From Actinomycetes bacterium (GTDB lineage: Bacteria > Actinomycetota > Acidimicrobiia > Acidimicrobiales > Bog-793): 64,000 nucleotides of DNA. The notes below the pieces were generated by a model, which saw only the letters and a list, made by a program, of their open reading frames with translations, was not told the origin of the DNA and made no database searches. The translations under genes and the position numbers were made by a program. Positions 1,517-11,775 of this stretch are shown here, piece by piece (positions within the stretch are counted from its first letter, which is position 1; the number at the start of each line of letters is the position of its first letter). Location: positions 13,659 to 77,658 of the forward strand of contig JAJZZB010000003.1 in the NCBI GenBank assembly GCA_021797795.1, given 5' to 3'.

Positions 1517-2773
1517 ATGCCCCGGCGGCGGGAGGCGGAGGACGCCCGGTCAGCGACAAGGCAGGGTGGCGACGAGGCGGCACGGCGGACCCCGGCTGCC
1601 CGCGCCTCGGAGCCGGATCGGAAGAAGGCGGCACGGCCCCACTGGGCGGATCTCTACGCCGAGGTCGTCGGGAGCCGCCTCTGCAGCGGCTGCGGCGCCT
1701 GCGTGGTCACCTGCCCGCGAGGCGTGCTCGGCTATCGGGACACCTCCCCGTTCCAGGACGACGACGGCTCGTCCGCGCACTCCTGCCGTTTCGGTGAGGC
1801 CGGCTGCGACGCCTGCACCCGCGCCTGCCCCCGCTTTCGCGCTGGGCCGACGGGCGTCGACGAGGCGCTCTTCGGCCGGCGCCGCCAGTCGGACGAGGCG
1901 GCCGGCGTCTTCGTCTCCGCTCTCGCGCTGAGAGCGGCTGAGCGGGAATGGCGCGGCCACTCCCAGGACGGGGGCCTCGTCTCGATGCTCCTCGTCTGGG
2001 CCCTCGAGACCGGCCGGATCGACGGAGCCGTCGTCGCAGGGTCCCGCCCGGGGCATCCGCTTCGCGGGGAGCCGGCGATCGCCCGCACACGAGACGAGAT
2101 CCTCGCCGCTGCCGGCTCGCGCTACACCTACGTGCCGAACCTGCTCGCTCTCGCCGCTGCGGCGCCGCAGGAACGCCTTGCCCTCGTGGGCGTCGGATGT
2201 CAGGTGAGCGGCCTTGTGACCGCCCAGCAGGCGCGCCTCAAGCGGTTCCGCTCGGTCGTCTTCCGGATCGGCCTCATGTGCAGCGAAACCTTCTCCGAAG
2301 CCCCGTTCCTCGACGGCCTGCTCGCCGCCAGGCTCGGGCTCGATCTCCACAAGATCGAGAAGGTGAACGTGAAGGGCAGGGTGGTCGTCTCGACCGAGGG
2401 CTCCCACCACGGCCACCTCGCCTCGGGTCCGGTGGCGGGCAGCCGTGCGCGCGTCGGGGGCGACGGCCGGATCGAGATCCCACTCTCCGAGGCGCGCCCC
2501 CTCGCCCGCCTCCAGTGCGCGTCGTGCTCGGACTTCAGCGCCGAATGGTCGGACCTGTCCGCCGGGGGCCTCGGGCTCGACGGGTGGACCGTCGGTCTCG
2601 TCCGCTCGCCGCTCGCCCGGGCCTGGATCGACCTCATGCTCGCCGAAGGGCTGCTCGAAGCGCGCGATCTCGGGCAGTTCCCACAGGCGGAGCGGCTGAT
2701 GCAGCGCCTCGCCGAGGCGCAGCGCGAACGGCCAGGCATCCATAGGCTGCTGCAGCCGGCACAGGGAGGATGA
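1517..2773 (+). CDS. FrhB/FdhB-family (coenzyme F420 hydrogenase/dehydrogenase beta subunit-like) Fe-S flavoprotein with N-terminal ferredoxin-type motifs
   Basis: CSGCGACVVTCP, GCDACTRACP, SQDGGLVS, AAGSRY, VGVGCQ, IGLMCSETF, CASCSDFSAEWSDLSAGG; ATG 1517 after GGGAGG; upstream part of the 59..2773 ORF is antisense to the leuA-like gene. Confidence 0.85.
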   Translation: MPRRREAEDARSATRQGGDEAARRTPAARASEPDRKKAARPHWADLYAEVVGSRLCSGCGACVVTCPRGVLGYRDTSPFQDDDGSSAHSCRFGEAGCDACTRACPRFRAGPTGVDEALFGRRRQSDEAAGVFVSALALRAAEREWRGHSQDGGLVSMLLVWALETGRIDGAVVAGSRPGHPLRGEPAIARTRDEILAAAGSRYTYVPNLLALAAAAPQERLALVGVGCQVSGLVTAQQARLKRFRSVVFRIGLMCSETFSEAPFLDGLLAARLGLDLHKIEKVNVKGRVVVSTEGSHHGHLASGPVAGSRARVGGDGRIEIPLSEARPLARLQCASCSDFSAEWSDLSAGGLGLDGWTVGLVRSPLARAWIDLMLAEGLLEARDLGQFPQAERLMQRLAEAQRERPGIHRLLQPAQGG

Positions 2774-3195
2774 TCGTCATGGAGCCACCGGTCCTGTCCA
2801 TCGTCGTCGGCTTCATCCGCAGCCCGGAGGGGCGGGCCGCCCTGGAGCATGCCGAAGAGGAGGCGCGCCTTCGCGGTGCGCGGCTCGTCATCGTCCACTC
2901 GAGCCGAGGAGGCGGCGGGGAGCGCCCCGAAGACGCGCTCGCCGACAGAGAGGAGCTCGAGCAGGTGGGCGAGCGGCTGGCGGCAGCGGGTGTCGCCCAT
3001 GAGGTTCGCGAGCTGGCACGGGGGGGCAGCCCAGCCGCCGACCTCGTCGACGTGGCGAACGAGGTCGGCGCCACCATGATCGTGATCGGGCTCCGCCGCC
3101 GGTCGAGGGTGGGCAAGCTCATCCTCGGCAGCAACGCCCAGGACACCCTGCTCGGTGCAGACTGCCCCGTGCTGGCCGTGAAACCGACCGACTGA
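2770..3195 (+). CDS. Universal stress protein (UspA family)
   Basis: IVVGF..SPEGRAALEHA, MIVIGLRRRSRVGKLILGSNAQDTLLGADCPVLAVK; ATGA overlap with the upstream gene. Confidence 0.9.
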   Translation: MIVMEPPVLSIVVGFIRSPEGRAALEHAEEEARLRGARLVIVHSSRGGGGERPEDALADREELEQVGERLAAAGVAHEVRELARGGSPAADLVDVANEVGATMIVIGLRRRSRVGKLILGSNAQDTLLGADCPVLAVKPTD

Positions 3196-3259
3196 GCGGG
3201 AGCGGGAGCGCCGCCTGGCGACCGACGGCGCAGGCGTCGCCCGCTGGGCCGCCTCGCGC

Positions 3260-4291
3260 TCAGGCTCGCCCGGTCGGCACGGGCAGGCGCCCGGCGGCCT
3301 CGACGATCGCCTGCTCGACCGCCCTGCGAGTCATCTGCTTGCGCCAGACGTAGTGCAGGTCGGCGTTGTCGAGCGGCTTGGCGACCTTGGCCGCCTCGGC
3401 CGCCACCTCTGCCAGCAGGCCGTCCGCCCCGGCCAGCACGTCGGCGGTCAGCTCGCGGCCGATCAGCGGGGCGGCGGCGGCGCTCACGTCGAAGGGCCGC
3501 GACCCGACGGCGGTGAGCACGATCCGGCAGTCGTCGACGAGCGGGCCGCTCCGGCGGAGCGCCACGGCCACCCCGGCGAGGGGGAAGTCGATCGTGTTGC
3601 GCCGCCTGACCTTCACGTACGACGAGCACCAACTCCCCGGAGCCGGGAGGCGCACGCTCTCGACGACCTCGTCCGCCGACTTCTCGAGGTAGTACTGCCC
3701 GTCGTCGCGGTAGAGCCCGTCCACCGGCACCTCCCGCCGCCGTCCGGCCGGACCGGCGAGCACGACCGACGCGCCGAGGGCGATGGCGGCGGGGGCGGTG
3801 TCGGACGAGGCGATCGCCCGGCAGCGCTTGCTGGCCGGCGCGACCCGGCAGATGTCGCCGTCCTTCTTCATGCAGAACCCGCATGCCTGTCGCCACTCGA
3901 AGCTCATGTCGTAGTAGTTGCAGCGCGTGTCGACGCAGAGGTTTCCCCCGATCGTGCCGACGTTGCGCAGGGCGGGGGACGAGACGAGGGCGGCGGCTCG
4001 CACGTAGGCGGGGTAGGCGGCCGCCAGGCGGCGGTGCGCGCTCACCTCGGCGAGCGTCACCCCTGCCCCGATCAGGAACCCGCCCTCCTCGGTCTCGGTG
4101 ACGGCGCGCAGCTCGGCGAGGTGCCCGAGACCGATGAGGACCTCCGGCTCCATCTGGCCGCGCTTCATCTTCGGGACGAGATCGGTCCCGCCGGCGACGA
4201 GCATCGCCCGCTCCCCGTGCCGGGAGAGCAGCTCGGCTGCCTCCTCGACCGAGCCCGGGCGGAGATAGCTACAGGGCGGCAGTCGCAGCAT
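3260..4291 (-). CDS. FAD-binding subunit of a xanthine-oxidase-family Mo enzyme, 4-hydroxybenzoyl-CoA reductase beta (HcrB)-like, with [4Fe-4S] insertion
   Basis: VAGGTDL, RNVGTIGGNL, insertion CVDTRCNYY..CGFCMKKDGDICRVAPASKRC, RRRNTIDFPL. Confidence 0.85.
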   Translation of the reverse strand: MLRLPPCSYLRPGSVEEAAELLSRHGERAMLVAGGTDLVPKMKRGQMEPEVLIGLGHLAELRAVTETEEGGFLIGAGVTLAEVSAHRRLAAAYPAYVRAAALVSSPALRNVGTIGGNLCVDTRCNYYDMSFEWRQACGFCMKKDGDICRVAPASKRCRAIASSDTAPAAIALGASVVLAGPAGRRREVPVDGLYRDDGQYYLEKSADEVVESVRLPAPGSWCSSYVKVRRRNTIDFPLAGVAVALRRSGPLVDDCRIVLTAVGSRPFDVSAAAAPLIGRELTADVLAGADGLLAEVAAEAAKVAKPLDNADLHYVWRKQMTRRAVEQAIVEAAGRLPVPTGRA

Positions 4292-10596: not shown

Positions 10597-11468
10597 TGCC
10601 CACTCCGGTCGCCAGCGGGACGGCGGAGCGCGAGCAGGTAGTCGCGCTCGTTCACGCCCCTCACGAACTCCTCGAGGTAGGAGATGGCGCCCTCGGCCGT
10701 GGCCGCCATCGAGAGGTACCGTCGCAGATGCTCCTCGTCGGCGCCGTAGTGGCCATGAGAGGCCGTGGGGTGGCAGCCGCCCGGAGCCTCGACGACCCCG
10801 TGAACGAGAAAGCCCGGGATCGTCGTGCCGACGGCGTGCCGGCTGATCTCCTCGGTCGGCACGACACGCTCCACCTGCACGATGACGGTCTTCGCTGCGA
10901 GCGCCATCGCGCGGTCGACGAAGTGTGCCCCCGCGATCACGGCATTGCCGGCGGCATCGGCTGCGGCCGCGTGCAGCAGCGCGACGTCGGGTATCAGCGG
11001 AGCGCCGGCGAGGACCTGCTTCCCGGTGAACGGGTCCGTGACGAGTCGGTAGCTCTCGGCATTCGCCTTCCAGACGTCGGCCGCCTCGAGTCCCTCGGGC
11101 AGTGCCACGAAGGGCAGGCCGCCCGCCCCCGCAGTGAGCCCGTGAGTGATGTAGGCCTCGTCGCACTCGAGGACCCGCACGACTCCGGCCTCGACGGCTC
11201 GGCGGAAGGCCGGAGCGAGCCCGAGGTGCTCGAAGCCGACGTACGACGTTTCGATCTCCCCGACGAGCCCCGCAGCGACGAGCAGATCGGCGTTCAAGGC
11301 ACCGCACGGGCTCGTGAGCAGGCGGGCGACGTGGCGATCCTGGCGCACCATCTCCCGCACGAGGGCCATCGGGTTGTTGTGGAGGTGCATGCCGCCGACA
11401 GCGAGCACCGCGACGCCGTCGGGAACGAGGCGCTCGATGGCGTCGTCCAGCGAGAGGACCTTGTCCAA
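10593..11468 (-). CDS. CoA-transferase-fold protein, alpha subunit (GctA/CatI/IpdA-like)
   Basis: DKVLSLDDAI, GGMHLHNNPMAL, GLAPAFRRAVE, GLPFV, LVTDPFTG, PDVALLHA, GGCHPT; TTG start. Confidence 0.85.
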   Translation of the reverse strand: MDKVLSLDDAIERLVPDGVAVLAVGGMHLHNNPMALVREMVRQDRHVARLLTSPCGALNADLLVAAGLVGEIETSYVGFEHLGLAPAFRRAVEAGVVRVLECDEAYITHGLTAGAGGLPFVALPEGLEAADVWKANAESYRLVTDPFTGKQVLAGAPLIPDVALLHAAAADAAGNAVIAGAHFVDRAMALAAKTVIVQVERVVPTEEISRHAVGTTIPGFLVHGVVEAPGGCHPTASHGHYGADEEHLRRYLSMAATAEGAISYLEEFVRGVNERDYLLALRRPAGDRSGQ

Positions 11469-11487
11469 CTGTGCCCTCCCTCTGCCG

Positions 11488-11775
11488 TCAGCCGGCCGGG
11501 AGGAGGGCGTTCACCCGCTCCTGGGCAGCCGCGACGTTGCGGAAGTGCAGAGCGTTGATCTCGAGATACGCCGCCAGCTCCTCGGGAAGGTCCTCCTCGG
11601 CGAAGATGGCGTCCACGGGGCACGGTTCGACGCAGGCGGCGCAGTCGATGCACTCGTCAGGGTCGATGAAGAGCATGCGGTCACCCTCGTCGCCACTGAT
11701 GCAGTCGACTGGGCATGCGTCGATGCAGGACTGGTCCTTGGTGTCGATGCATGCCTGAGTGATCACGTAGGCCAC
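11488..11775 (-). CDS. fdxA: Dicluster (7Fe-type, FdxA-like) ferredoxin
   Basis: YVITQACIDTKDQSCIDACPVDCI...IDPDECIDCAACVEPCPVDAIF. Confidence 0.85.
   Translation of the reverse strand: MAYVITQACIDTKDQSCIDACPVDCISGDEGDRMLFIDPDECIDCAACVEPCPVDAIFAEEDLPEELAAYLEINALHFRNVAAAQERVNALLPAG

Follow-up and report, generated by a model that had tools for sequence, protein, structure and literature searches.

A candidate F420:ferredoxin oxidoreductase beside a 4-hydroxybenzoyl-CoA reductase-like operon in an uncultured actinomycete

In Thauera aromatica, the 2-oxoacid:ferredoxin oxidoreductase KGOR reduces the ferredoxin that serves both 4-hydroxybenzoyl-CoA reductase (HBCR; HcrCAB) and benzoyl-CoA reductase (BCR). 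To our knowledge, no source of electrons for these two reductases has been described apart from 2-oxoacid:ferredoxin oxidoreductases and related systems. Bacterial F420 is known mainly as a hydride donor in direct substrate reductions. A redox link between F420 and ferredoxin is found in Methanosarcina, where soluble FpoF acts as a ferredoxin:F420 oxidoreductase; FpoF/FqoF is also the input subunit of F420H2 dehydrogenase. Here we describe a stretch of 64,000 nucleotides from an uncultured actinomycete (the window; GenBank assembly GCA_021797795.1, contig JAJZZB010000003.1, positions 13,659 to 77,658). In it, the gene of an FrhB-family iron–sulfur flavoprotein lies beside an operon for a ferredoxin (Fd) and an HcrCAB-like molybdenum (Mo) enzyme. 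An earlier note on this DNA proposed that electrons pass from F420H2 through the flavoprotein and the ferredoxin to the Mo enzyme. We tentatively favour a looser reading, which falls just short of being probable: the flavoprotein may be an accessory F420:ferredoxin oxidoreductase that ties the F420 pool to the ferredoxin pool of the surrounding catabolic island. The source is a metagenome-assembled genome (MAG) of 3.8 Mb in 324 contigs, with an estimated completeness of 94%. Genes were called from third-position GC (GC3) frames together with Pfam and NCBIfam domain scans.

The nearest structures belong to two plug-in modules of Ca. Ethanoperedens thermophilum, ACDS zeta (8RIU chain B) and FwdI (8RJA chain E). 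These modules turn the normally ferredoxin-using enzymes CODH and Fwd into F420 reducers, and their reduction of F420 is proven (PMC11493965). An AlphaFold2 model of the window protein (pLDDT 88) matches the CODH zeta subunit 8riu_B best among PDB folds (E 7e-28, target-normalized TM 0.83), followed by FwdI 8rja_E and then by FrhB and Fsr. The window protein has the layout of the archaeal modules, in which a 2x[4Fe-4S] ferredoxin domain precedes an FrhB-type domain that holds one [4Fe-4S] cluster and FAD; the two modules are also its best sequence matches, and its alignment to 8riu_B extends over the N-terminal ferredoxin domain. Both FrhB domains score above their Pfam cut-offs (FrhB_FdhB_N 75.2 bits, FrhB_FdhB_C 82.8 bits), and the Pfam scan places Fer4 motifs, forming a double CxxCxxCxxxCP-type domain, at the N-terminus. 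Across 37 homologues, 12 cysteines are invariant and fall into three groups of four. (i) Cys56/59/62/66 and (ii) Cys90/97/100/104 are the ligands of the ferredoxin domain. (iii) Cys228/255/334/337 belong to the FrhB-domain [4Fe-4S] cluster and, in alignment, fall on the PCQ, CxE and CxxC motifs of FrhB and 8riu_B. The flavin-site motifs QDGG (150–153) and SxYTY (S201/Y203/T204/Y205) are invariant in the same set. The protein would be an F420 reductase module of the FpoF-like or plug-in type, with three [4Fe-4S] clusters and FAD, and is a candidate F420:ferredoxin oxidoreductase. It differs from the Ethanoperedens modules in several respects: those are archaeal, are stable subunits of CODH or Fwd, have a proven direction towards F420 and share 24–27% identity with it, whereas the window protein is bacterial and its predicted partners are a free 7Fe ferredoxin, an enzyme of the Mo hydroxylase family, a BCR-like enzyme or a 2-oxoacid:ferredoxin oxidoreductase (OFOR). 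With FpoF/FqoF it shares the Fer4 plus FrhB architecture and, by prediction, the redox link between F420 and ferredoxin; unlike them, it has no Fpo/Nuo membrane genes nearby and misses the NCBIfam cut-off for FpoF. Its NCBIfam scores weigh against the F420 reading: 129.5 bits against a cut-off of 331.5 for frhB (TIGR03289), and 82.7 against 475 for FpoF (NF040616). Because they lie so far under the equivalog cut-offs, we regard the protein as a member of the superfamily and not as an orthologue of FrhB or FpoF. The earlier note had described a stand-alone FrhB-family protein with ferredoxin-type motifs and no hydrogenase or formate dehydrogenase (FDH) large subunit beside it, and the domains and neighbours agree. 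The adjoining genes are those of a universal stress protein (USP) and a LeuA-like protein, so no such large subunit is adjacent; matches to NiFe-hydrogenase occur on other contigs only.

The main positive evidence for a function with F420 and ferredoxin comes from distant relatives, in which closeness to ferredoxin-linked enzymes or to F420 biosynthesis genes outlasts rearrangement. Homologues were drawn from a search of 5.8 billion proteins, and in the resulting tree 23 of them, about 49–76% identical, form one clade with the window protein, which is sister to a subclade with 100/100 support. All five sampled members of this subclade have a four-gene class-I-BCR-like operon, an orthologous Fd-HcrCAB operon or both. 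In these Hcr operons HcrA is 70% identical, the four HcrB cysteines are retained, and ferredoxin orthologues of 55–64% identity head the operon or lie within it. Gene order is fluid, with at least four arrangements, including BCR-FrhB-Fd-HcrCAB and BCR-FrhB with a divergent Fd-HcrCAB. Locus L028 reads Fd-HcrCAB-FrhB-fbiC, so that the FrhB gene stands between HcrB and fbiC, and in L040 BCR-FrhB converges on HcrBAC-Fd, the same convergence of FrhB and HcrB as in the window. A search seeded from an HcrB of the subclade type returned four loci, all four of the order BCR-FrhB-Fd-HcrCAB. These compact operons hold two presumed users of ferredoxin and no ferredoxin reducer within 10 kb. In the next clade out, FrhB genes lie beside cofD, cofC and cofE, and in the outermost clade, on Dormibacterota-type contigs, the FrhB gene and a PFOR gene overlap at the stop codon of the latter. 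These PFOR pairs suggest a pyruvate:F420 oxidoreductase similar in design to the archaeal F420-reducing CODH. Among the cof-associated loci, L021 (9016–12936) and L023 (579–3172) each show a gene of the FrhB clade diverging from cofD, with cofC and cofE near; it is translationally coupled to the gene of a 444–552-aa protein that has no Pfam or NCBIfam match. Among the PFOR loci, L029 (3821–8505) and L042 (4309–9227) carry a PFOR gene of 1181–1231 aa with a 4-bp overlap with the start of the FrhB-clade gene. A more distant FrhB paralogue (about 40–47% identity), looked at in the genome's own copy on contig C294 and in P0105 of L051, has no Hcr, BCR or PFOR context.

The genome itself encodes the means to make F420. 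Profile searches found cofE (242.6 bits, cut-off 180.65) and two fused fbiC genes (about 457 bits each, cut-off 374.1), and tblastn found cofD (55% identity), which adjoins cofE, and cofC (36%). Both fbiC genes, on contigs C166 and C321, code for full-length FO synthases and exceed the CofH cut-off. F420 biosynthesis is therefore not lacking, since cofE, fbiC, cofD and cofC are all in the genome, and the earlier note's proposal does not fall on that count. As a source of F420H2, Fno (npdG) scores 166.8 bits against a cut-off of 149.8. The other candidate source, Fgd, was ruled out: no true Fgd was found in the genome, where the best match reached 140.7 bits against a cut-off of 420 and only LLM-family paralogues were recovered.

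FrhB folds do not always bind F420. Some enzymes with this fold, HCAR and BciB of chlorophyll metabolism, are F420-independent, and this weighs against the F420 reading. Like the window protein they are stand-alone and have Fe-S clusters and FAD; they take electrons from ferredoxin and reduce a tetrapyrrole, not F420, and they lack an N-terminal 2x[4Fe-4S] domain of the window type. By analogy, the window protein might draw electrons from ferredoxin and reduce, at its FAD site, an intermediate of the pathway, for instance a dienoyl- or enoyl-CoA. The HCAR structure 5dqr is among its fold matches, its scores are well under the FrhB and FpoF equivalog cut-offs, and its gene sits within catabolic operons. 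The protein is nevertheless much nearer to F420-using members of the superfamily than to HCAR in sequence (E 2e-32 against 3e-10), and HCAR also ranks lower by fold. Relatives adjoin fbiC and cofD/cofC/cofE, and the pairing with PFOR offers no intermediate of the kind required. We consider a role of this type quite improbable.

The presumed partner, the Mo enzyme, is built like HcrCAB of Thauera, with three subunits (Mo, FAD and 2x[2Fe-2S]) and a four-cysteine [4Fe-4S] insertion in the FAD subunit. The HcrB-like subunit contains the domains FAD_binding_5 and CO_deh_flav_C, and among the NCBIfam models it best matches the beta subunit of 4-hydroxybenzoyl-CoA reductase. In a phmmer alignment to Thauera HcrB (1rm6_B), the query segment CVDTRCNYYDMSFEWRQACGFCMKKDGDICRVAPASKRCRA pairs with CQDTRCTFYNQSEWWRSGNGYCLKYKGDKCHVIVKSDRCYA. 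On this alignment the cysteines of TRC, FC, IC and RC correspond to chain positions 122, 138, 146 and 155 of 1rm6_B, which we take to be its [4Fe-4S] ligands. All four cysteines of the HcrB-type insertion are thus in place, as the earlier note had read them. The link that it drew from this insertion to HBCR fares less well. The three subunits fall under the equivalog cut-offs of TIGR03194, TIGR03195 and TIGR03193 (783.7 against 994.55, 299.3 against 404.55 and 189.4 against 257.8 bits), and the HcrA-like subunit has GAKEVGQGP at 4485–4511, where Thauera HcrA has GAKEASEG, so that Gln replaces the active-site Glu of the xanthine oxidase family. The same Gln occurs in 18 of 18 related loci examined, actinobacterial and Dormibacterota, of the LeuCD type and of the BCR type; it is therefore a trait of the clade and not a lesion. 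The enzyme is best described as HBCR-like rather than as a canonical HBCR, and its reductive role is a presumption. The ferredoxin has the cysteine pattern C-X7-C-X3-CP ... C-X2-C-X2-C-X3-CP, and its best NCBIfam match, FdxA_Actino, reaches 111.2 bits, just below the cut-off of 125. The claim that a 7Fe ferredoxin heads the operon holds, given this FdxA pattern and its place as the first gene after a TetR gene and an operator. The locus further resembles the Thauera system in its clustered ferredoxin gene, its neighbouring 2-oxoacid:ferredoxin oxidoreductase and the presence in the genome of a four-subunit BCR-like enzyme. It differs in that the Thauera ferredoxin is of the 2x[4Fe-4S] type, in the Gln and the cut-offs missed by all three subunits, and in the addition of LeuCD-like, BadH-like and AibAB/IpdAB-like genes to the operon and of an FrhB-type protein beside it.

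On its other side, the FrhB gene is divergently paired with an array of 2-oxoacid:ferredoxin oxidoreductase genes. The LeuA-like open reading frame (ORF) that leaves the window is the first part of a 1069-aa LeuA-like::IorA fusion, which runs to position 11749 of the contig (C105:11749) and matches the IOR alpha model at 674.7 bits (cut-off 650.9). It is followed by IorB with a 2x[4Fe-4S] tail and then by a second OFOR alpha/beta pair, whose alpha subunit scores 507.7 bits (cut-off 411). Beyond these lie CoA-transferase, hydratase, short-chain dehydrogenase/reductase (SDR), thiolase, PrpF-like and PaaK-like genes. L007, L010 and L018 keep the array next to their Hcr clusters, and genomes without FrhB are among them. 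LeuA-like and IorA lie in one frame in L007 and L018, a hint that they are fused in these loci too, and are separate genes in L010. Such an aldolase–OFOR fusion suggests that the 2-oxoacid product of the first half is channelled to the second. The array would provide a conserved and conventional route from 2-oxoacid through IOR/OFOR to ferredoxin, parallel to that of KGOR in Thauera. A further part of the island is probably carried on contig C189, since C105:1–422 and C189:1–422 overlap end to end with 91% identity inside an enoyl-CoA hydratase gene. From there C189 continues with four BCR-like genes, PaaX, boxC, boxB and a CoA ligase. The BCR-like set on C189, like that of the sister operons, comprises two HGD-D-type subunits and two BcrAD/BadFG ATPase subunits, with scores well under the class I equivalog cut-offs (for example, 251.8 against 421 and 211 against 486.55). 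The probable joined island would be a large aryl-CoA island, in which 'anaerobic' BCR-like genes and aerobic box genes stand together.

Taken with IOR/OFOR and the C189 genes, the locus forms an island in which the FrhB gene has a central place, among two reducers of ferredoxin, the ferredoxin itself and two presumed users of it. The arrangement we favour would work as follows. (i) The island's own ferredoxin reducers would be the LeuA-like::IorA fusion with IorB and the OFOR alpha/beta pair. (ii) The presumed users would be the HcrCAB-like Mo enzyme with its extra [4Fe-4S] cluster and the class-I-BCR-like enzyme on C189. (iii) The FrhB module would connect the F420 pool with the pool of low-potential 7Fe ferredoxin in this aryl/alicyclic acyl-CoA catabolic island. 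(iv) Fno would regenerate F420H2, and F420H2 would feed ferredoxin. (v) In this genome the module would be accessory, not obligatory, with IOR/OFOR as the conserved ferredoxin reductant. The direction in step (iv) is a leaning, taken because the compact sister operons hold no other module for electron input.

Redox energetics speak against this direction. F420H2, at about −340 mV, is a weaker reductant than typical ferredoxins, so its electrons would have to move uphill; the flow from ferredoxin to F420 would be easier thermodynamically, and both the archaeal precedents and the PFOR pairing run that way. The FrhB protein might then drain reduced ferredoxin into F420, as a generator of F420H2 or redox valve comparable to the Ethanoperedens CODH/Fwd modules and soluble FpoF, with electrons from IOR/OFOR or from an oxidative Mo enzyme. 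The divergent pairing with the IOR/OFOR operon, the overlap of PFOR and FrhB genes in L029 and L042 and the reduction of F420 by the nearest structures (PMC11493965) all fit a drain, and the Gln at the catalytic Glu site leaves the direction of the Mo enzyme open. A drain would, on the other hand, compete with two presumed ferredoxin consumers in the compact operons, which have no ferredoxin reducer within 10 kb. We judge this reversed flow unlikely.

The compact operons invite a bolder version of the F420H2-to-ferredoxin reading, which we hold to be doubtful. In some actinobacterial lineages (and in Dormibacterota for PFOR), the FrhB protein could be the dedicated electron input of ferredoxin-dependent aryl-CoA enzymes, where F420H2 would reduce a 7Fe ferredoxin to drive an ATP-dependent BCR-like ring reductase and the HBCR-like Mo enzyme, replacing the 2-oxoacid:ferredoxin oxidoreductase of known anaerobes. 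Our literature search for F420 or FrhB in connection with benzoyl- or 4-hydroxybenzoyl-CoA reductase, and for actinobacterial ferredoxin:F420 oxidoreductases, found no description of the link. Plug-in F420 reductases and the ferredoxin:F420 activity of the FpoF type are already known; the link between FrhB/F420 and BCR/HBCR-like operons, suggested by comparative genomics, would be new. If true, the conserved FrhB module of the BCR-like/ferredoxin/Hcr-like operons would be a new bacterial bridge from F420 to low-potential ferredoxin and would hint at unexplored aryl-CoA metabolism in uncultured Actinomycetota. The lesson of this window is more modest, with an FrhB module that is optional and a conventional ferredoxin reducer next door.

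Evidence against a firm tie between the flavoprotein and this Mo cluster comes from close relatives, for which 13 species-representative genomes with HcrB of 58–95% identity were compared. The Fd–CoA-transferase-fold–SDR–LeuCD–HcrCAB array is kept among them (L010, L017, L018; L011 in part). An intact FrhB orthologue is present in one of the 13, genome G002, where it lies downstream of hcrB on the same strand with a gap of about 20–30 bp, the FrhB–USP module being inverted. The 95%-identical sibling G001 (MAG YP2.bin33; L007/L020) has a clean 640-bp deletion within the FrhB gene, equivalent to window positions 1758–2397; its length is not a multiple of three and its flanks are 93–94% identical, an assembly artefact being possible. 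Five of the genomes have no FrhB-like gene at E<=1e-20, and six hold BCR-like genes without an FrhB orthologue. A class-wide search of 401 genomes found no FrhB orthologue except the window's own; 148 carry a single-copy paralogue of about 40–47% identity, so the window's FrhB clade is rare in this sample. Within the window itself, the FrhB and Mo-operon genes are convergent and are thus not co-transcribed, the palindrome upstream of FrhB is unlike the operator conserved at the ferredoxin operon, and the conserved IOR/OFOR operon next to the cluster would suffice for ferredoxin reduction. Near the Hcr/BCR genes of L014, L016 and L010, we found no alternative ferredoxin reductase; the genes there encode a thiolase, an MFS transporter, a GNAT-fused acyl-CoA synthetase, an enoyl-CoA hydratase and a CoA ligase.

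These comparisons bear hardest on the strict chain of the earlier note, in which the FrhB protein is a dedicated and required donor and electrons follow one fixed path, from F420H2 by way of FrhB and then ferredoxin, to a reductive Mo enzyme of the HBCR type. The F420 genes, the fold and the sister synteny support the coupling as such, and the intact [4Fe-4S] insertion of HcrB suits a reductive enzyme. Most genomes that carry this Mo cluster, however, lack the FrhB gene or have it damaged, so the gene is no consistent partner of the cluster; for this type of cluster the expectation that homologous clusters keep FrhB has failed. The conserved IOR/OFOR next door and the Gln-type, sub-cut-off Mo subunit point the same way, and for this genome we think the strict chain very unlikely.

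The same losses raise another account, that the adjacent IOR/OFOR reduces the ferredoxin, as KGOR does in Thauera, and that FrhB–USP was inserted recently, is decaying and serves no function in the pathway of this genome. It would explain why LeuA-like-IorA-IorB-OFOR is kept beside Hcr in L007, L010 and L018 and FrhB is not, why the sibling's gene has lost 640 bp and the module is flipped in G002, and why FrhB is transcribed separately behind a different palindrome. Set against it, relatives of FrhB recur, in many gene orders, next to orthologous Fd-HcrCAB and BCR-like genes, and a chance landing exactly between a ferredoxin-reducing and a ferredoxin-using operon would be improbable. On balance a mere insertion seems rather unlikely, and an accessory F420:ferredoxin oxidoreductase remains our preferred, if tentative, interpretation.

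The features of the locus are collected in table 1. Downstream of the TetR gene, the minus strand forms one tightly packed array from the ferredoxin to HcrB, on which the plus-strand FrhB and USP genes converge; the LeuA/HMGL-like gene diverges from the FrhB gene.

Table 1. Features at the left end of the window (window coordinates).
Feature	Position	Strand	Basis or remark
LeuA/HMGL-like (aldolase/synthase) N-terminal part of 1069-aa ORF	2-1297	(-)	leaves left edge of window, continues as IorA
Divergent intergenic region, IOR/OFOR operon and FrhB gene	1298-1516	.	imperfect inverted repeat at ~1432-1482
FrhB-family iron–sulfur flavoprotein, 418 aa; candidate F420:ferredoxin oxidoreductase	1517-2773	(+)	Pfam domains, Cys conservation, fold match
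Universal stress protein (USP)	2770-3195	(+)	domain scan; 4-bp overlap with FrhB gene, translational coupling
HcrB-like FAD subunit of Mo enzyme, four-Cys [4Fe-4S] insertion	3260-4291	(-)	domains, NCBIfam, alignment to 1rm6_B
HcrA-like molybdopterin subunit; Gln at catalytic Glu site of family (GAKEVGQGP)	4269-6653	(-)	domains, NCBIfam, alignment
HcrC-like 2x[2Fe-2S] subunit	6641-7132	(-)	domains, NCBIfam
LeuD-like (7129-7650) and LeuC-like (7647-8951) aconitase-family (de)hydratase	7129-8951	(-)	domains, NCBIfam
SDR, best match BadH (2-hydroxycyclohexanecarboxyl-CoA dehydrogenase)	9035-9799	(-)	275 bits, under cut-off 431
CoA-transferase-fold beta (9802-10596) and alpha (10593-11468)	9802-11468	(-)	domains; beta without catalytic Glu; AibAB/IpdAB-like
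7Fe FdxA-type ferredoxin, 95 aa, first gene of operon	11488-11775	(-)	NCBIfam and Cys motif
Promoter/operator region of ferredoxin operon	11776-11957	(-)	repeats kept in 5 related loci
TetR-family regulator, upstream of ferredoxin operon	11958-12653	(-)	domain scan

The USP gene is kept beside HcrB in L007, L008, L010 and L011, even without FrhB. Scans for sigma-70 promoters and terminators gave nothing informative in this DNA of 72% GC. Repeats were nonetheless recognizable in both intergenic regions. Upstream of the ferredoxin gene, at about 11790–11860, lie AGTCTACAGT-N5-TGTAGATCG and ATGTAGATTGA, conserved in five related loci. The arrangement common to L010, L011, L017 and L018 is AGTCTACAGT-N5-TGTAGATCG followed by one or two ATGTAGAT(T/C)GA repeats. 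This operator is probably the site of the adjacent TetR regulator. The region between the IOR/OFOR operon and the FrhB gene holds an AT-richer, imperfect inverted repeat, CTCTACGTACTGTGGCTA ... TAGCCAGAGTACGTTAGA, at about 1432–1482. Co-regulation of FrhB with the ferredoxin operon was considered and set aside: what the two promoters share is a post hoc motif, TCTAC-N(0-8)-ACTGT, confined to these two sites, and the conserved operator is not the FrhB palindrome, so we make no such claim. In the CoA-transferase-fold pair of the operon, Ala stands in the beta subunit at the site of the catalytic Glu54 of GctB (VESG to VAGG), and the alpha subunit is closest to two non-transferases, the decarboxylase AibA (5mzw) and the ring hydrolase IpdA (6co6). 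For these two reasons the pair is probably no transferase but works on an acyl-CoA as a lyase, hydrolase or decarboxylase.

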